From contig CAWEJX010000008.1 in NCBI GenBank assembly GCA_963809485.1, positions 256,001-320,000 of the forward strand: 64,000 nt of DNA, given 5' to 3'. Source of the DNA: an uncultured Acidobacteriota bacterium (lineage in GTDB: Bacteria > Acidobacteriota > UBA6911). Below the pieces are notes generated by a model. It saw nothing but the letters and a program-made list of their open reading frames with translations. It was not told where the DNA came from and did not search any database. How positions within the stretch are numbered: position 1 is the stretch's first letter; each line of letters begins with the position of its first letter. The position numbers and the translations under genes are program-made. Positions 28,569-47,630 of the stretch are shown here, piece by piece.

Positions 28569-28652
28569 CCAGTCTCCAGTCTCCAGTTTCCAGTTGCCAG
28601 TTTTGAGATTTGTTTTTAACTGAAAACTGGGAACTCTGAACTGGAAACTCGA
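28569..28652. repeat. heptamer inverted-repeat element B
   Basis: ccagtct ccagtct ccagttt ccagttg ccagttt / aactgaa aactggg aactctg aactgga aactcga (5+5 units). Confidence 0.9.
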
Positions 28653-30780: not shown

Positions 30781-30860
30781 CGTTTCGCGTTTCCCGTTTC
30801 CGGTTTCCCGTTAAAGCCTTCCATTCCAAACGCGGAACCGGAAACGGGAAACGTGAAACG
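30781..30860. repeat. heptamer inverted-repeat element C (CGTTTCC class)
   Basis: cgtttcg cgtttcc cgtttcc ggtttcc cgtt / aacgcgg aaccgga aacggga aacgtga aacg. Confidence 0.9.
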
Positions 30861-32981: not shown

Positions 32982-33056
32982 GGTTTCCCGTTTTCAGGTT
33001 CCCGGTTTCCCGTTCTGATTTCTTGAATTTGAACGGGAAAGAACGGGGAACCTGAA
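32982..33056. repeat. heptamer inverted-repeat element D
   Basis: Five GTT cores in 32982-33014. Right arm gaacgggaa...gggaacctgaa is complementary. Confidence 0.8.
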
Positions 33057-34773: not shown

Positions 34774-34843
34774 GAGTTTCCAGTTCCCAGGTAAAAGGCT
34801 TCAGTCTTAAAACTGGCAACTGGAAACTTGGAACTGGGAACTC
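34774..34843. repeat. heptamer inverted-repeat element E
   Basis: gagtttc cagttcc caggt / aactggc aactgga aacttgg aactggg aactc. Confidence 0.85.
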
Positions 34844-36317: not shown

Positions 36318-36400
36318 CCAGTTCCCAGTTCCCAGTTCCCAGTTTCCGGTTTCCCTGTTTTGATTTCAACTCGAAACTCGAAACTGGGAACTTGGAACTA
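36318..36400. repeat. heptamer inverted-repeat element F
   Basis: ccagttc x3 ccagttt ccggttt / aactcga aactcga aactggg aacttgg aacta. Confidence 0.9.
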
Positions 36401-37645: not shown

Positions 37646-37762
37646 AATTACGAATTACGAATTACGAATGACGAATTTAAACAATCTACTTGGCTATCTA
37701 TCATAAAATGCAAACTGCAGATGTTGATTCAATTCGTCATTCGTAATTCGTAATTCGCAATT
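37646..37762. repeat. heptamer inverted-repeat element G (AATTACG class)
   Basis: aattacg x3 aatgacg aatt / aattcgtcattcgtaattcgtaattcgcaatt; 31/32 positions complementary. Confidence 0.92.
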
Positions 37763-39527: not shown

Positions 39528-39689
39528 GAGTTCCCAGTTTCGAGTTCCCAGTTTCCAGTTGGATATAAATTGCTTTTGAATGGAGATTTTGAACCGGGAT
39601 TAAGCCTTACAGGATTTACTGCATGGGGGTGATGCCAGTTCCCAGTTTCCAATCCAAACTGGGAACTGGAAACTGGGAACTGGAAACTC
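39528..39689. repeat. heptamer inverted-repeat element H (with extra internal partial arm)
   Basis: Arms 39528-39560 and 39657-39689 (5 units each), plus ccagttcccagtttcc at 39635-39650. Confidence 0.88.
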
Positions 39690-39696
39690 AAAAGGT

Positions 39697-41178
39697 CTAA
39701 CCGAGCTTGCCTTGCCAGGGGCTGGCCGGTGTTCCGACCAGGTCGATCCAAACGTTCTTCATCATGCTGTATTCATCGAGGACCATGATGGAATTTTCCT
39801 TGCTGTGCCCCGACTCTTTGCATCCGCCCCAGGGGCATTCAAAAACAATGGACAGGTGCTGGTTCAGCCACACGGTGCCCACTTTGAGCTGCTTGGTCAT
39901 GACCAGGCCCAGCCGTATATCCTTGGTCCAGATCGATGCGCACAAACCGAAACGGGAGTCGTTGGCGATAGCCACAGCCTCTTCAGGAGTCCTGAATTTT
40001 GCCAGGGCAACCACCGGGCCGAAGACTTCCTCCTGCATGATCTCCGATTTGGGATCGCAGTCGCCAAAAATCGTGGGGGGAACGAAATATCCATCTTTCG
40101 TTTCCGGCGTATTGGGACGTTCACCGCCCAGCAGCAGTTTTGCGCCGGATCTCCTGGCACGCTCAACGAAGCGCTCGATGTTGTCCCTGTGGCCTTTGTA
40201 AGCGACAGGCCCGATCATAGTCTCAGGATTCAGAGGATCCCCCACACGCAGCAGCTTCGCGGCAGCAACAAATTTTTCGGCGAATTCGTCGTACACCGAC
40301 TCGTGAACAAGGTACCGGCTCGAGGCGCCGCAGTTCTGGCCGGAATTAAAGAAACCGCCCCAGATGGCCCCTTCGACGGTGGCCTTCATATCCGCGTCGG
40401 GAAGCACGATGAATGGATTTTTGCCCCCCAGCTCGCAAGCGACCGGTTTCACTGCAGCGCTGGCCAGAGCCAGGATCCGTTTCCCGGTTTCCGAATCGCC
40501 GGTAAAATTGATTTTGGCAATATAGGGGTGTTTGACCATGGCTTCTCCAACGGTAGATCCGGGACCAGACACGATATTAAGCACGCCCGGCGGGAATCCG
40601 GCCTTGGCGGCAAGCTCGCCAAGCTTCAGAACCGTAAGGGGAGCGCAGGAAGCAGGCTTCACCACGGCGGTGTTCCCCATCATCAACGCCGGGGTAATTT
40701 TGGATATTGCCGTAACAAGAGGGAAATTCCATGGCGTGATCAAACCCACAACCCCCAAAGGCTGGCGGATAGTAAAGGACATCGCCTGCGGGCCGACGGG
40801 CAGCGTTTTACCTGTTACCGCCCTTGCGACGCCGGCCATGAATTCGAAATGCTGCGCATCAAAGGTCATATCGAAATTGGTTGTTTTGAAAATTGGCCCG
40901 CCGTATTGCATGGTTTCCAATTTGGCCCACTCGTCCCGTTGAGCCCGGAGCAGCTCTGCCATCTTGAAGAAAATGGCAGCCTTATCGGTCGGGGATGTTT
41001 CCGCCCAGGCAGGCGCAGCCTTCCAGGCCGCCTCAGCCGCCCGGTCGACCTCTACCGAACTGCATTTGGGAGCGAGGCCTACGACCTTGCCATTTGCAGG
41101 ATTGATCACTTCCATCGTTTCCTTGGTAGATGCTTCGCAAAGCTCCCCATTGATTAACACCCGGTAATCTGAATTCAT
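39697..41178 (-). CDS. aldehyde dehydrogenase
   Basis: ITPWNFP, VKPAS, FTGDSETG, ELGGKNP, GQNC, EEVFGPV. Confidence 0.95.
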   Translation of the reverse strand: MNSDYRVLINGELCEASTKETMEVINPANGKVVGLAPKCSSVEVDRAAEAAWKAAPAWAETSPTDKAAIFFKMAELLRAQRDEWAKLETMQYGGPIFKTTNFDMTFDAQHFEFMAGVARAVTGKTLPVGPQAMSFTIRQPLGVVGLITPWNFPLVTAISKITPALMMGNTAVVKPASCAPLTVLKLGELAAKAGFPPGVLNIVSGPGSTVGEAMVKHPYIAKINFTGDSETGKRILALASAAVKPVACELGGKNPFIVLPDADMKATVEGAIWGGFFNSGQNCGASSRYLVHESVYDEFAEKFVAAAKLLRVGDPLNPETMIGPVAYKGHRDNIERFVERARRSGAKLLLGGERPNTPETKDGYFVPPTIFGDCDPKSEIMQEEVFGPVVALAKFRTPEEAVAIANDSRFGLCASIWTKDIRLGLVMTKQLKVGTVWLNQHLSIVFECPWGGCKESGHSKENSIMVLDEYSMMKNVWIDLVGTPASPWQGKLG

Positions 41179-41195
41179 GACCGCCCCCATATCTT

Positions 41196-41724
41196 GAGTT
41201 TCCAGTTCCCAGTTTCAAGTTCCCAGTTACCTGCCGGTTCATTTTAGACTGGACACTGGTAATCTACGGTTTTTGTTTATATGTCAGAAGATATTTTATA
41301 AAACCCCGAATTGCTGCGCGGGTTTCGCCCGCATGATTGTAGACATCCTGAAAGTCGGCTTTCGAAATGTATTTCTGATCCAAGGCCACGTAAAGCTCGC
41401 TCTGTACCTCAGAGCATGAGCGTTTGGCATATCGAAGGAAGCGAAGGAATTCAGCATTAGTCTCCGAATCGAATCCTTCCGCAATATTATGCATAGCCGA
41501 ACCAGCAGCGCTTTGAATCTGTCTTCTTAAGGCCAAAATCCCGGGCAAACTTGTCCTTATTTGTTAGGCCATAGATTTTACTGGTTAGCTCTCGAGCCAG
41601 CTGCCATGCCTTGATTTCCTCAAAACGCTGAATTTTCATGTTAGATACAGTTACTGGTTCGAAGTAGCCGGCTTCCATCAGAGCTATACCAAACTGGAAA
41701 CTGGAAACTGGGAACTCGGAACTC
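41196..41724. repeat. heptamer inverted-repeat element I enclosing the four-helix-bundle gene
   Basis: Arms 41196-41228 (gagtttc cagttcc cagtttc aagttcc cagtt) and 41692-41724 (aactgga aactgga aactggg aactcgg aactc). Confidence 0.9.
41264..41639 (-). CDS. four helix bundle protein (23S rRNA IVP / Avd-like family), one-base frameshift near 41530
   Basis: MKIQRFEEIKAWQLAREL...FARDFGL + RRQIQSAAGSAMHNIAEGF...EFLRFLRYAKRSCSEVQSELYVALDQKYI. Span is 376 nt, one base too long. Confidence 0.9.
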
Positions 41725-41726
41725 GT

Positions 41727-42488
41727 TTAATCGGCGACGATGCCTCCATCCACGGGCAGCGCGGCGCCCGTAATGTAAGAGGCTTCATCCGAGCACAGGA
41801 ACATGGCTGCGGCGGCTACCTCTTCAGGTTCGCCTATCCTTCCCATGGGAACTTTCTGGTCCATTGCCTTGACCATTTCCGGATTCGCGGCTACCAGGCT
41901 TTCATTCATGCCCGTCCGGATGGGGCCCGGGCAGACACAGTTAACCCGAATGCCTTTTCGCGCAAACTCCAGCGCGGTCGATTTCGTGATTCCCACAACT
42001 CCGTGCTTGCTGGCCGGATAGGCCGGATTGCTCGGCGCTCCAACCAGTCCCGCGGCCGAAGACGTGTTCACAATGGCGCCTTTCCCTAGCTTGAGCATTT
42101 GCGGGATCTCATATTTCATGCACAGCCATACGCTCTTGAGATTCACATTGATCATCTCTTCCCAGTCCGCGGCTGTGAAATCGGCCATGGAAGCAAATAC
42201 CTTATGAATCCCGGCATTGTTGAAAGCGCAGTCAAGCTTCCCGTAAGTTTCGACCGTTTTCTCTACTAAAGCTTTAACATCTGCCTCCGAAGATACGTCC
42301 GTTTTTACAAAAAATGCGTCGCCACCGGCATCCTTGATCCGGCGTAGAGTTTCTTCTCCCCGCTTGACATCGACGTCGGCGATTGCCACCTTTGCTCCTC
42401 TTTGAGCAAAGCCTATTGCGGCCGCTCTGCCGATGCCATAAGCCCCCCCAGTCACGATCACAACCTTGTTTCGATACTCGTTTGGCAT
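41727..42488 (-). CDS. SDR family oxidoreductase
   Basis: TGGAYGIG, LDCAFNNAG, YPASKHG, LPVDGG. Start MPNEY after GGAG. Confidence 0.93.
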   Translation of the reverse strand: MPNEYRNKVVIVTGGAYGIGRAAAIGFAQRGAKVAIADVDVKRGEETLRRIKDAGGDAFFVKTDVSSEADVKALVEKTVETYGKLDCAFNNAGIHKVFASMADFTAADWEEMINVNLKSVWLCMKYEIPQMLKLGKGAIVNTSSAAGLVGAPSNPAYPASKHGVVGITKSTALEFARKGIRVNCVCPGPIRTGMNESLVAANPEMVKAMDQKVPMGRIGEPEEVAAAAMFLCSDEASYITGAALPVDGGIVAD

Positions 42489-42515
42489 TTCTCTATCTCC
42501 TCTTTTCGGGGTCTC

Positions 42516-45801: not shown

Positions 45802-47430
45802 ATGTCGACACAAGAAACTGTAAAGCCGGTAGAAATCAGTCCGCTTCGGCCGAAGTACGCCGAAAAAACGCCACCCTGTGTCTCTCACTGCCCGAATGAA
45901 GCCGATATCCGGGGCTGGATCACCACGATAGCACAGGCTGAAGCTTACGGGAGAACTGACGAGCAAGCCCTCGAGCTGGCATGGCGAAAAATCACCGATC
46001 TCAATCCCTTCCCCGCTATTTGCGGCCGTGTCTGCCCGCACCCATGCGAGGCGCAATGCAACCGCAAGGACAAGGATGGCCCTGTAGCCATCAACGCATT
46101 GGAGCGGTTTGTCGGCGATTACGGCATCGCCCGGGGATTAGGGCTTGAACGGCTTTCAGAAGACAAACGCCAGGACAAGGTTGCGGTCATAGGATCAGGT
46201 CCGGCAGGCCTTTCCTGCGCCTATCAGCTGGCTCGCCGCGGATATCCGGTCACGATTTATGAGGCCTTCAGCCAACCCGGCGGCATGCTGCGCTACGGCA
46301 TTCCCCAATACCGGTTACCCAGGGAGATATTGGACGCGGAAATTCACCGGATCCTGGATCTCGGGGTCGAGCTGAAGTGCGGCGTGATCGTTGGAAAGGA
46401 TATCTCCCTTGCGCAGCTGCGGCAGGAGTGCAAGGCAATTTTCGTCGGCATCGGCGCGCACAAGGGGCAGAGGCTCGGCATACCGGGTGAAGATGCCGGT
46501 AACGTTTTAACCGGCGTTGAATTTCTCAATCAGGTCAATAGCGGCCATCCCATGAACCTGGGCAGTTGCGTCCTTGTCGTCGGCGGCGGGGATACTGCCA
46601 TCGACGCAGCTAGAATCTGCAGGCGCCTGGGCGCCGAAGTCACAATACTCTATCGCCGGACCCGAGTCCGAGATGCCCGCAATCGCAAGGGAAATCGACG
46701 CCGCTATGGAAGAAGGAGTGGCCATTGAATTCCTGGCTGCGCCGACGGAAGTGCTTCGTGAAAATGGCACGGCGGTTGGATTGAAGTGCATCCGTATGGA
46801 GCTTGGAGCGCCCGATGCTTCCGGACGCTCCCGGCCGATGCCGATAGCCGGATCCGAGTTCGAAATAAAAGCCTCAACGATTATTGTCGCCGTCAGCCAG
46901 GAACCTGAATTGACCGCTCTTGCCGATTTGCAGGAAAACATGGAACGGATCCGGACCGATGAATGGGGAGCCACCGGCATCGCGGGTATTTATGCCGGCG
47001 GCGATGACCTCGAATTAGCCCTTGGTGGCCACAGCCGTATACCAGGGCCGATTGGCTGCCCAGGCGATCGATTCCCATTTCGCGGGGATAGATCCTGACA
47101 AAACCGGAGACACATCCTCCGGCTACCAAGGTGATCGCGGACTGGCATATGGAAGCGGAACGTCATGAACGGCAGCGTCTTCCGGTCGAGCAGCGCGATA
47201 TGGACGCTGAAATCGAGCAGGGCATGTCTCAGGAAGAAGCCCTCGAGGAAGCAAAACGCTGCATGTCGTGCGGCATGTGCATGGATTGCGAAAGCTGCTG
47301 GATGTACTGCACCAACAACTGCTTTGTCAGGCTTCCGAAGGGGGAGCACTACAGCATCAAGATGGATCTGTGCAACGGCTGCAAAAAATGCGCCGATGGC
47401 TGCCCCACCGGCTATCTCGAACTCGTTTAG
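45802..47430 (+). CDS. DsrL-like / GltD-family NAD(P)H iron-sulfur flavoprotein (frameshifted near 46670 and 47020-47100)
   Basis: KTPPCVSHCP..DIRGW, NPFPAICGRVCPHPCEAQCNR, GSGPAG, GGGDTAID, YRRT, EAKRCMSCGMCMDCESCWMYC...CNGCKKCADGCPTGY. Confidence 0.8.
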
Positions 47431-47630
47431 TTTCCAGTTCCCAGTTTCCAGTTCCCAGTTGGAAAAAGGATTGGAAATCATCAAAGGCATCGGAATTTGG
47501 CCATGCAGCGCATGAGAGACATATAGGCAGAGTCACCCCCAACAGCTATTCGAGCTCTTCCACTTTTGTGTTTTCCAGTCTTGGGTGGATGGTTTTGAAC
47601 TGGGAACTGGGAACTGGAAACTTGAAACTC
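47428..47630. repeat. heptamer inverted-repeat element K between convergent genes
   Basis: Arms 47428-47460 and 47598-47630 (5 units each), 137-nt loop. Confidence 0.9.

Follow-up and report, generated by a model that had tools for sequence, protein, structure and literature searches.

We analysed a stretch of 64,000 nucleotides from an uncultured Acidobacteriota bacterium (GTDB lineage UBA6911; contig CAWEJX010000008.1, positions 256,001 to 320,000), referred to here as the window. At positions 41196-41724 inverted tandem-heptamer arms bracket a gene of the PF05635/TIGR02436 four-helix-bundle family (IVP), the whole occupying the spacer between a short-chain dehydrogenase (SDR) gene and an aldehyde dehydrogenase (ALDH) gene, with all of these features on the minus strand. 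In the sense of the genes, the 5′ arm (41692..41724) comprises approximately 4.7 heptamer units reading AGTTYCC on the sense strand and adjoins the SDR stop, and the 3′ arm (41196..41228) reads GGRAACT. The arms are 33 nt each, are complementary at 29 of 33 positions (88 %) and are separated by 463 nt; Tandem Repeats Finder assigns a period of 7 to each, with these same units. The upstream SDR gene (41727..42500, start approximate) has its stop codon (41727-41729) 2 nt from the nearest arm, while the downstream ALDH gene (39697..41178) begins 17 nt from the other arm, its start codon at 41178 being set from orthologues. The first-pass annotation had described two complementary heptamer arms around the gene at the SDR-ALDH junction and had placed the gene inside the loop of a heptamer hairpin filling that junction, and the coordinates of arms and gene bear out both descriptions. 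The cassette is thus built as a stem-loop of the intervening sequence (IVS) type, with an ORF in the loop of a long terminal-inverted-repeat stem. It lies outside any rRNA gene, its neighbours being the SDR and ALDH genes; no Rfam family was matched at gathering score, with one sub-threshold miRNA match, and a promoter and terminator scan of the cassette returned nothing beyond the level of shuffled sequence. We found no relatives among phage records. As had been noted at the outset, no transposase, integrase or reverse transcriptase (RT) is encoded within the operon, and the single RVT_1 match of the whole genome is partial and approximately 290 kb away.

The IVP gene (41264..41639) spans 376 nt including the stop, equivalent to 124 codons, a stop and one base, and this extra base breaks its frame. 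Of its two overlapping frames, 41678..41487 aligns with positions 1-33 of PF05635 and scores 17.4 bits, under the cut-off, and 41548..41264 covers positions 30-104 and scores 74.3 bits (cut-off 33.8). When the gene is aligned with three intact orthologues (G043, 124 aa; G003, 123 aa; G006, 127 aa), the insertion falls at approximately 41531-41534, where the sense strand reads GGCC in the window and GGC in the orthologues, so that the 1-nt frameshift noted near 41530 holds in the assembled sequence. An intact frame of approximately 120 aa is absent from the window as assembled and present in all three orthologues. The family assignment likewise stands, given the PF05635 score of the C-terminal fragment and a TIGR02436 score of 100.5 bits (cut-off 24) for the intact G043 orthologue. 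Solved relatives of the protein are 2gsc (E = 5.8e-11) and 2rld (E = 0.013), each entry containing 5 chains. We know of no catalytic motif or activity of IVP proteins, and PADLOC profiles run against two of them returned 0 families. A link between the family and HEPN proteins was considered and dropped; the HEPN survey (PMC3710099) has 0 mentions of it.

None of the sequencing runs listed for the locus is of RNA; the best DNA runs share at most 0.34 of the words of the locus, and the Logan contigs belong to relatives approximately 92-93 % identical. At 41523 these related-strain contigs are shorter by one letter, and one heptamer fewer was seen in a related strain at 41691. The whole cassette is spanned by independent metagenome contigs in three runs. 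Contig joints that skip 460-484 nt were considered as an empty allele and rejected, their sides being only 18-30 nt and read as other hairpins with the same arms.

Orthologous cassettes were identified in four other genomes. At the SDR-ALDH junction the cassette is intact in G043, G003 and G006 and decayed in G018. Substitution rates in the IVP gene (dN 0.10-0.18, dS saturated) are set beside those of the ALDH N-terminus (dN 0.09-0.11, dS 1.3-2.2). The cassette is vertically inherited at this junction in part of the genus, its protein being under purifying selection in three lineages and in decay in two, including that of the window. Arm units have drifted, with CGTTTCC in both arms of G006 and in the 5′ arm of G018, and AGTTYCC in G000. 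Gene-less sites, which the first-pass annotation had expected in relatives, do exist: the junctions of G023, G022 and G004 carry only short heptamer hairpins. The hairpin directly upstream of ALDH is kept in most members of the genus despite the drift of its unit. Apparent inserts of 1.55-1.65 kb at the junction in G002, G015, G019 and G044 were considered as hairpin cargo and proved to be a second ALDH paralogue.

Eight more heptamer hairpins, none containing a gene, were identified at neighbouring gene junctions of the window. Arms of AGTTYCC units are found at 39529..39681 (26 nt, 25 matched, loop of 101 nt), at the CoA-transferase/ALDH junction next to that of the cassette, at 47429..47622 (26 nt, 25 matched, loop of 142 nt) and in a short hairpin at 34775..34828 (16 nt, 15 matched, loop of 22 nt). 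Related units form the hairpins at 36320..36399 (AGTTCCC; 27 nt, 24 matched, loop of 26 nt), 28578..28649 (AGTYTCC; 27 nt, 22 matched, loop of 18 nt) and 30781..30860 (CGTTTCC; 32 nt, 29 matched, loop of 16 nt), the last having the unit variant common to the orthologous cassettes of G006 and G018. A weak, short hairpin of GGTTCCC type lies at 32993..33056 (15 nt, 14 matched, loop of 34 nt), and the hairpin at 37646..37762 (39 nt, 36 matched, loop of 39 nt) belongs to the class ACGAATK, the commonest in the genome. A shared TAAAGC motif behind the 5′ arm was sought as a sign that gene-less hairpins arose by deletion; some junction orthologues and two of the window's hairpins have it, but it is not general in the genome.

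The 6.04-Mb genome contains 248 arrays of at least four units at period 7, compared with 46, 20, 34, 3, 5 and 0 at periods 5, 6, 8, 9, 10 and 11 respectively. There are 73 inverted heptamer pairs and 3 IVP genes, and inverted arrays also enclose ordinary genes at kilobase distances. All three PF05635 matches of the genome are armed. Of the three IVP genes two are broken, and hairpins of their classes are still numerous, so that hairpins persist without an intact gene. We found no identical cassette copies within a genome, and thus no sign of recent transposition of the IVP gene itself.

We define an armed cassette as an IVP gene with inverted period-7 arrays within approximately 200 nt on each side and 5′ units of the form AG[T/G]NNNN, a class that includes the window cassette with its AGTTYCC units and arms on both sides. 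In a comparison of 107 related genes from more than 10 phyla, inverted period-7 arms surround 68, and the other 39 fall outside the criteria for arms. Arms occur at 20 of the 29 loci from relatives that could be tested and at 48 of the 78 loci in a broad set, which was searched from an 8-sequence alignment and is biased to genes with [VI]S[IV]P[SA]NIAE, leaving the window's subfamily under-represented. No such arms were found around 200 shifted pseudo-genes or 1500 random 340-nt intervals, so that the enrichment of arms at TIGR02436/PF05635 genes, proposed in the first-pass annotation as a test of its model, came out strongly positive. Under the same criteria, periods 4, 5, 6, 9 and 10 gave 0 loci and period 8 gave 2. 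The three named cyanobacterial plasmid copies that we inspected are all armed. Loops of 344-569 nt fit an IVP gene, and tight heptamer arms were not seen to enclose any other cargo gene. The layout of arms around IVP genes is strongly non-random across phyla.

Across the 68 armed loci the 5′ unit rule AG[T/G]NNNN reflects A at position 1 in 62, G at position 2 in 67, and T (37) or G (19) at position 3. The 3′ arm is the complement of the 5′ arm, and a typical arm has 4-5 units. The distance between units falls with rising protein identity (r = -0.25), a value reached by 0 of 2000 permutations. Common units occur across phyla, for example in a Ruminococcus MAG and a genome of the window's genus (70 % protein identity) and in a Chitinophaga MAG and a betaproteobacterial MAG (68 % identity). 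The variable part of the arm unit tracks protein lineage.

Gene-less arrays follow the gene at the level of whole genomes. Period-7 arrays number 41, 72.5, 208 and 216 per Mb in genomes with 2-3, 5, 8 and 11 PF05635 matches respectively, against 5.7, 2.5, 4.3, 0 and 0 per Mb in five genomes with no such matches. PF05635 count and array density are correlated (Spearman rho 0.92, n = 9) in this set of mutually related genomes, chosen for extreme IVP counts and, for all but G000, sampled at 97-400 kb. Array units were matched to arms in three genomes, where 171 of 370, 25 of 39 and 74 of 104 arrays (46-71 %) have a unit equal to a 7-mer of the IVP arms of their own genome, compared with 18-49 % for the arms of other genomes and 3-6 % for letter-shuffled units. 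The other 199 of the 370 arrays in the genome of the window match no IVP arm of that genome. Within the genus, an IVP subfamily with ACGAATK arms is present in 8 of the 12 genomes that have many ACGAATK arrays and in 0 of the 18 that have few (one-sided Fisher p = 8.5e-5), and the cognate gene was not detected in four of the array-rich genomes. Density, common unit classes and the two-by-two table of subfamily and class together tie the IVP gene to the gene-less hairpins, of which it had been proposed to be the coding member. Among the genomes compared, gene-less hairpins of IVP arm unit classes are abundant only in those that carry IVP.

The cassette folds as RNA at -177.2 kcal/mol (z = -4.42), with the arms paired as the terminal stem in both the MFE and the centroid structure. 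Mismatches between the arms show no sense-strand G-U bias (46 GT/TG vs 53 AC/CA), and arm pairing may consequently be preserved in the DNA itself or on both strands. Of the 55 armed cassettes with clear neighbours, 27 run in the direction of both neighbours, 8 run against both and 20 are flanked by genes that diverge or converge. The description of these elements as mRNA-borne therefore fails for the class as a whole, only 27 of the 55 being co-directional with both neighbours.

On balance we lean towards reading positions 41196-41724 as a decaying copy of a widespread IVS-type cassette whose protein partners a population of hairpins that have no gene, much as in REPIN-RAYT systems. Upon transcription of the operon the arms would pair into a stem of approximately 33 bp that could be cut by RNase III, as demonstrated for the Coxiella IVS, and such a cut would split the SDR, IVP and ALDH messages. 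By analogy with its solved relatives the protein probably forms a pentameric ring, which may recognise heptamer arrays of its own unit class and would maintain or spread the gene-less hairpins, as a single-copy RAYT does with its REPIN population. DNA-level copying between arms or elements would keep the arms alike, and unit number would shift by slippage.

Some of the same observations could be accommodated if IVP were a host post-transcriptional or DNA-binding regulator and the hairpins were its binding sites where operon genes join, with an autoregulatory pair around its own gene, all kept for control and not for propagation. The purifying selection on the protein, the co-variation of units with protein lineage as in regulator-site pairs, the tight fit of hairpins between the cistrons of a single catabolic run of genes and the retention of the ALDH hairpin across the genus are all in keeping with a regulon. 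We nonetheless regard this as unlikely, as it leaves the origin of hundreds of inverted arrays of 60-200 nt at unrelated junctions unexplained, hairpins stay plentiful in genomes whose cognate gene is broken or was not found, and the cassette is also present in rRNA and CRISPR loci. It is more doubtful still that the hairpins are made or spread by another agent, for example slippage during replication, an enzyme yet to be identified or a transposase of the Y1/RAYT type, with the IVP gene merely lodging or surviving in their loops. Unit class follows IVP lineage across phyla and genomes without IVP are nearly array-free, neither of which fits a passenger gene, and the tight arms, with loops that suit an IVP gene, were seen with no other cargo. 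The excess of 73 inverted pairs over 3 genes and the inverted arrays around ordinary genes do favour such an agent. All four heptamer-rich genomes tested have Y1_Tnp genes, but so do three of five heptamer-poor ones, and none of the 4 Y1_Tnp genes in the genome of the window has a period-7 array within 1.1 kb.

Avd, the accessory protein of diversity-generating retroelements (DGRs), belongs to PF05635, and bAvd forms a pentameric ring. The window gene resembles it in Pfam family and four-helix-bundle fold, with the relatives 2gsc and 2rld having five chains per entry, and differs in that there is no RT, there are no template or variable repeats and the Avd equivalog model is not reached. An origin of the gene as an Avd orphaned by loss of the RT and repeats is very improbable: the equivalog model NF033474 (cut-off 80) gives no match for the lineage of the window, the operon has no RT and the only RVT_1 match is the distant fragment, although L001 matches the model weakly at 25.5 bits, far under the cut-off. 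L001 is the other intact IVP copy of the window's genome. Heptamer arms are, to our knowledge, not a feature of DGRs and would be foreign to such a remnant. A chance or assembly artefact, in which unrelated simple repeats surround a small ORF, has only the general abundance of heptamer arrays in the genome in its favour and is refuted by the controls (0/200 and 0/1500), by the orthologous cassettes in four other genomes and by the metagenome contigs that span the whole cassette in three runs.

The reading of IVP as a partner of gene-less hairpins can be extended, tentatively and as rather less than an even bet, to the proposal that non-DGR PF05635 proteins are sequence-specific heptamer partners. 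Each lineage would recognise, after the common AG[T/G], four variable bases of its own, a ring of five would cover an arm of approximately five units, and the protein would make or maintain hairpin populations, with rRNA IVSs and STRR-type repeats as special cases. PF05635/TIGR02436 is a very widespread family of small proteins for which the only function known to us is the DGR accessory role of Avd, and no explanation known to us has accounted for the ORF-bearing rRNA intervening sequence since about 1990. Genotyping has long drawn on the tandem heptamer repeats that lie between bacterial genes, with their origin unexplained. Here the orphan protein family and the heptamer repeats are tied together by their physical arrangement at the locus and by the statistics of the genome comparison, and the sequence comparisons suggest that the IVP family is the protein partner of the heptamer hairpins scattered in these genomes. 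If the protein does read heptamers by lineage, it would constitute a compact programmable nucleic-acid recognition module with a natural modular 7-nt code, and a second REPIN-RAYT-like system built on a non-transposase protein. Were RNase III to cut the stems, the hairpins would act as natural insulators that separate one cistron from the next.

STRR are intergenic heptamer repeats of cyanobacteria. Like STRR and the TAACTGA repeats, the arrays described here consist of tandem 7-nt units between genes, often just upstream of starts, in scattered phyla, as far as the available descriptions allow comparison. The TAACTGA repeats of Beggiatoaceae, cyanobacteria and Bacteroidetes are described in the accessible text of their report as direct repeats with a possible translational role, with only one inverted set, and that text contains 0 occurrences of a four-helix-bundle gene or a 23S IVS (PMC4679880). 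In REPIN-RAYT systems, according to the available portions of the reports, a low-copy, vertically inherited gene has inverted repeat copies alongside it and the repeat is dispersed as gene-less hairpins, each gene lineage having its own repeat class and gene-free genomes lacking the repeats (PMC3116915, PMC3337134, bioRxiv 10.1101/2021.07.10.451892). On these accounts the IVP system is similar in logic, not in membership, with three of three genes armed, unit classes matched and arrays scarce where the gene is absent. Unlike RAYT, however, IVP is a four-helix bundle of approximately 120 aa and not a Y1/HUH transposase (PF01797), and its linked repeats are tandem heptamers and not REP palindromes as described for REPINs.

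ORF-bearing 23S rRNA intervening sequences are known from Leptospira as well as from Coxiella. The accessible text on the helix-45 IVS of Coxiella burnetii describes a 28-bp terminal stem with tandem GACAGAT heptamers in strain-variable number, which RNase III cuts at the first repeat, and argues that its S23p ORF is decaying and not expressed; the heptamers are handled there as a local detail of one IVS, without generalisation (PMC4990558). As described in that text, the Coxiella IVS shares with the window cassette a PF05635-family ORF in the loop, a terminal stem of approximately 28-33 bp and arms of tandem heptamers that differ in number from strain to strain, GACAGAT fitting the AG-type units in another register. 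In contrast, the window cassette lies in the intercistronic spacer of a catabolic operon and not in rRNA, its gene is accompanied by gene-less hairpins of the same unit classes, and orthologues of that gene are under purifying selection, unlike S23p as portrayed in the same source. In the literature text available, heptamers were found together with an IVP ORF only in that report, for the Coxiella IVS alone, and no description of the cassette outside rRNA was found.

We identified a gene of the 23S rRNA intervening-sequence protein family (IVP; PF05635/TIGR02436) enclosed by two inverted arms of tandem heptamers between a short-chain dehydrogenase (SDR) gene and an aldehyde dehydrogenase (ALDH) gene. 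Both arms are 33 nt long with a period of 7 by Tandem Repeats Finder, one lying by the SDR stop (41692-41724, minus strand) and the other by the ALDH start (41196-41228, minus strand). They are separated by 463 nt and match at 29 of 33 positions (88 % complementary), the element reading 5'-(AGTTYCC)n ... (GGRAACT)n-3' on either strand. Only 2 nt separate the end of the SDR gene from the nearest arm, while the ALDH start codon, placed at 41178 from orthologues, is 17 nt from the other arm, a gap with room for a G-rich ribosome site only. In the RNA fold of the cassette (-177.2 kcal/mol, z = -4.42) the terminal stem consists of the two arms. Alignment of orthologues gives a coding stretch of 376 nt (41639..41264, minus strand), which is split into two overlapping frames under translation table 11. 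The frame 41678..41487 matches PF05635 positions 1-33 with 17.4 bits, below the cut-off, and the frame 41548..41264 matches positions 30-104 with 74.3 bits, which passes the 33.8-bit cut-off. The first-pass annotation had placed a 1-nt frameshift near 41530, in agreement with the orthologue alignment, which shows one base too many and locates it in GGCC at approximately 41531-41534; this base may be genuine or an assembly error. Three metagenome runs each contained one contig spanning the whole cassette with approximately 92-93 % identity, all a letter short at 41523 and one also a heptamer short at 41691; the window's own strain was in none of the sequencing runs examined.

To survey PF05635 genes for such arms we used two sets, 30 loci (29 testable) taken from the 32 genomes, among 41 from the genus and class, that contain the gene, and 80 loci (78 testable) from a degenerate-pattern scan limited to one genome per species and covering Acidobacteriota, Planctomycetota, Chloroflexota, Proteobacteria, Bacteroidota, Firmicutes, Elusimicrobiota, Verrucomicrobiota, Nitrospirota and other phyla. 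Under fixed criteria (a score of 14 or more for the best ungapped inverted match between the two 200-nt flanks, together with a period-7 self-identity no lower than 0.7) arms were present at 20/29 loci of the relatives and 48/78 of the broad set. The enrichment for arms proposed in the first-pass annotation is thus borne out, with 68/107 genes armed compared with 0/200 pseudo-genes shifted 700 nt within the same loci and 0/1500 random intervals of the window's own genome (G000). The same criteria passed no loci at periods 4, 5, 6, 9 and 10, and two at period 8, one from each set. L023 (G023:C300), of the same IVP subfamily as the window's gene, has arms of period 8 (ACGTGCTA units) rather than 7. 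Locus L010 of the relatives (G034, an unpublished genome) was negative and no conclusion draws on it, and broad locus L053, a duplicate of L009, was left out of later counts. In draft genomes of the relatives many PF05635 genes lie no more than a few hundred bases from a contig end (e.g. G008:C398, G024:C413, G001:C104, G007:C351). This would be expected if short-read assemblies break at the repeat arms, and fragmented genomes probably yield counts of such genes that are too low. All three cyanobacterial plasmid copies inspected were armed, these being on Nostoc punctiforme pNPUN02, Trichormus variabilis plasmid C and Anabaena sp. 90 pANA02 (L283, NC_019429.1:44265-44633), the last in a CRISPR-Cas locus, where it is placed between cas6 and cas4. 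The annotated start of cas4 takes in the 3' arm of L283 and may therefore be mis-called.

The armed loci share a common anatomy. Arm arrays have median lengths of 31 and 30 nt with a mode of four units (longest 180 and 240 nt), and the distance between arms has a median of 414 nt (IQR 390-462), with room for one IVP gene. Very long arms occur in L054 from a Planctomycetota MAG (approximately 170 nt of GGACAGT/GGACGGT units) and in L013 of G040 (>100 nt of GGAGACA/GGAGACG units), and judging by these the length of an array is only loosely constrained. Once aligned in a common register, 5' arm units carry A at position 1 in 62/68 and G at position 2 in 67/68, followed by T (37) or G (19) at position 3 and variable positions 4-7. 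Since an inverted repeat reads alike on both strands, this polarity is relative to the centre of the element and not to the gene. Arm mismatches showed no sense-strand excess of G-U (46 vs 53). With neighbour strands assigned by a crude longest-open-frame rule, 27 of 55 armed cassettes with clear neighbours were co-directional with both, 8 were antisense to both and 20 lay between divergent or convergent genes; where both neighbours shared a direction the gene was aligned with them in 27/35 (binomial p = 0.002).

Arm units also follow the lineage of the protein. Across the 68 loci unit distance falls with rising protein identity (r = -0.25, reached by 0/2000 label permutations), the mean number of differences (of 5) being 3.5 at <40 % identity, 2.1 at 60-70 % and 1.0 at >70 %. 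Pairs from different phyla can be alike in both, including a Ruminococcus MAG paired with one genome from the window's genus (70 % protein identity, units AGTGGTT/AGTGGTC) and a Chitinophaga MAG paired with a betaproteobacterial one (68 %, common unit AGGATTG), which together argues that gene and arms travel as one unit.

Within the genus, the cassette at the SDR-ALDH junction is present with an intact gene in G043, G003 and G006 (124, 123 and 127 aa respectively), with several frameshifts and deletions in G018 and with the one extra base in G000. A search for cassette-free sites, advocated in the first-pass annotation, recovered gene-less junctions of 70-100 nt with short heptamer hairpins in G023, G022 and G004; G016 has a GC-rich hairpin without heptamers, and G001 has heptamer arrays in a 540-nt stretch of other sequence. 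In G002, G015, G019 and G044 (L039-L041, L044) a second ALDH paralogue of approximately 480 aa lies between SDR and the conserved ALDH, directly upstream of which is a heptamer hairpin or array in G002 and G015, a single array in G019 and none in G044. Between intact orthologues the IVP gene has dN of 0.10-0.18 with saturated dS, and the neighbouring ALDH N-terminus dN of 0.09-0.11 with dS of 1.3-2.2, so that the cassette is old at this junction and its protein has experienced purifying selection comparable to that on a metabolic enzyme. The unit is AGTTYCC in G000, G043 and G003, and CGTTTCC in both arms of G006 and the 5' arm of G018. The G006 change is concerted, with every unit in the two arms altered alike, and in the window a hairpin with CGTTTCC units lies a few genes from the cassette (30781-30860), which points to copying from arm to arm or from element to element. 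The cassette in the window very probably belongs to the class of heptamer-armed IVP cassettes, as a frameshifted copy inherited at the SDR-ALDH junction.

The cassette falls within a minus-strand gene run (26.3-45.5 kb) encoding SDRs, a PrpD-like protein, enoyl-CoA hydratase, three family-III CoA-transferases, an OYE-type reductase, a MutE-like protein, a CoA-transferase, ALDH and a TRAP transporter; as previously annotated, no transposase, integrase or RT was found in this run. Eight further heptamer hairpins in the window lack a gene: six fill junctions of the run, one lies approximately 470 nt downstream of a run gene and one beyond the run. The whole 6.04-Mb genome contains 248 period-7 arrays of at least 4 units, and 46, 20, 34, 3, 5 and 0 at periods 5, 6, 8, 9, 10 and 11. 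Its three PF05635 matches all lie between inverted heptamer arms of different unit classes, namely the window copy (AGTTYCC), an intact copy on C1 (AGGGATT/AGYGGTT) and a decayed copy on C20 (ACGAWTK). A tandem hairpin cluster of the window cassette's unit class occurs at C19:41291-41912, outside the window, with six AGTTYCC arrays in approximately 620 nt at approximately 100-nt spacing. Gene-less ACGAATK hairpins (e.g. C1:357249-357405, C7:304319-304487, C8:474676-474762) have in common an inverted motif immediately internal to the arms, about TTGAAACATACGG ... CCGTATGTTTCAA, and resemble a single MITE-like family with elements of 80-160 nt. Another sequence repeated in or beside heptamer-flanked intervals (C5:46355-47194, C5:68681-69166, C20:788321-790473), which reads as a spurious ORF of approximately 75 aa starting MFGEGRRAKA, is an unrelated dispersed repeat or RNA gene.

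Across genomes, the density of period-7 arrays of at least 4 units was 41 per Mb in G000 (2-3 PF05635 matches), 72.5 in G012 (5 matches, 400-kb sample), 208 in G018 (8 matches, 395 kb) and 216 in G035 (11 matches, 97 kb); sampled genomes without a match had 5.7 (G014), 2.5 (G038, complete, single contig), 4.3 (G009), 0 (G017) and 0 (G030). PF05635 count and density correlate with a Spearman rho of 0.92 (n = 9) among genomes that were chosen by IVP counts and are kin to one another. The array consensus unit is a 7-mer of own-genome IVP arms in 171/370 arrays of G000, 25/39 of G012 and 74/104 of G018, compared with 18-49 % when the arms are those of the other two genomes and 3-6 % with shuffled letters; about half of the G000 arrays match no own IVP arm. 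Across the genus, counts of triple ACGAATK units (at most 1 mismatch) have a bimodal distribution, with at least 46 matches in 12/30 genomes and at most 6 in 18, and all 8 genomes containing the IVP subfamily with ACGAATK arms are among the 12 rich and none among the 18 poor (one-sided Fisher p = 8.5e-5, the genomes compared being kin). No cognate IVP gene was seen in four ACGAATK-rich genomes, and in G000 the cognate genes of two unit classes are broken while hairpins of both remain numerous. A Y1/RAYT transposase as alternative mobiliser finds no support, as Y1 genes occur in 3/5 heptamer-poor genomes too and 0/4 G000 Y1 genes have an array within 1.1 kb. G035, of the same class as G000 and with the highest heptamer density sampled, has 29 Y1_Tnp (PF01797) matches beside its 11 PF05635 matches.

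The most likely reading, which we hold tentatively, is that the IVP protein would act in trans as a partner to the heptamer hairpins, resembling in this the relation of REPIN and RAYT. The main rival takes the protein as a regulator and the hairpins as its putative binding sites. Chances appear even that the arms would pair in the operon transcript, offering a stem of approximately 33 bp to RNase III. The composite of cassette, stem and partner protein is, by a modest preference, our best explanation of the element.

The orthologue in G043 scores 100.5 bits as a TIGR02436 member and does not score as an Avd equivalog. Its nearest solved relatives, 2gsc and 2rld, were each deposited with five chains, consistent with the pentameric ring of bAvd. 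A literature search of full main texts returned no account of PF05635 genes outside rRNA enclosed by heptamer arms, nor any linking them to dispersed heptamer hairpins. Intergenic TAACTGA heptamers have been described in Beggiatoaceae, cyanobacteria and Bacteroidetes, with no mention of a PF05635 gene (MacGregor 2015, PMC4679880). In Coxiella burnetii the 23S intervening sequence (IVS) has the same build as the window's cassette: Warrier et al. (2016, PMC4990558) describe terminal inverted repeats that form a stem of 28 bp, GACAGAT heptamers in tandem, two or three depending on strain, upstream of the S23p ORF, and an RNase III cut where the first repeat begins, shown in vitro and by RACE. Experimental evidence for processing comes from this IVS only. 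The proposed relation of IVP protein to hairpin would be alike in working to that of REPIN and RAYT, the IVP cassette not being a member of that family.
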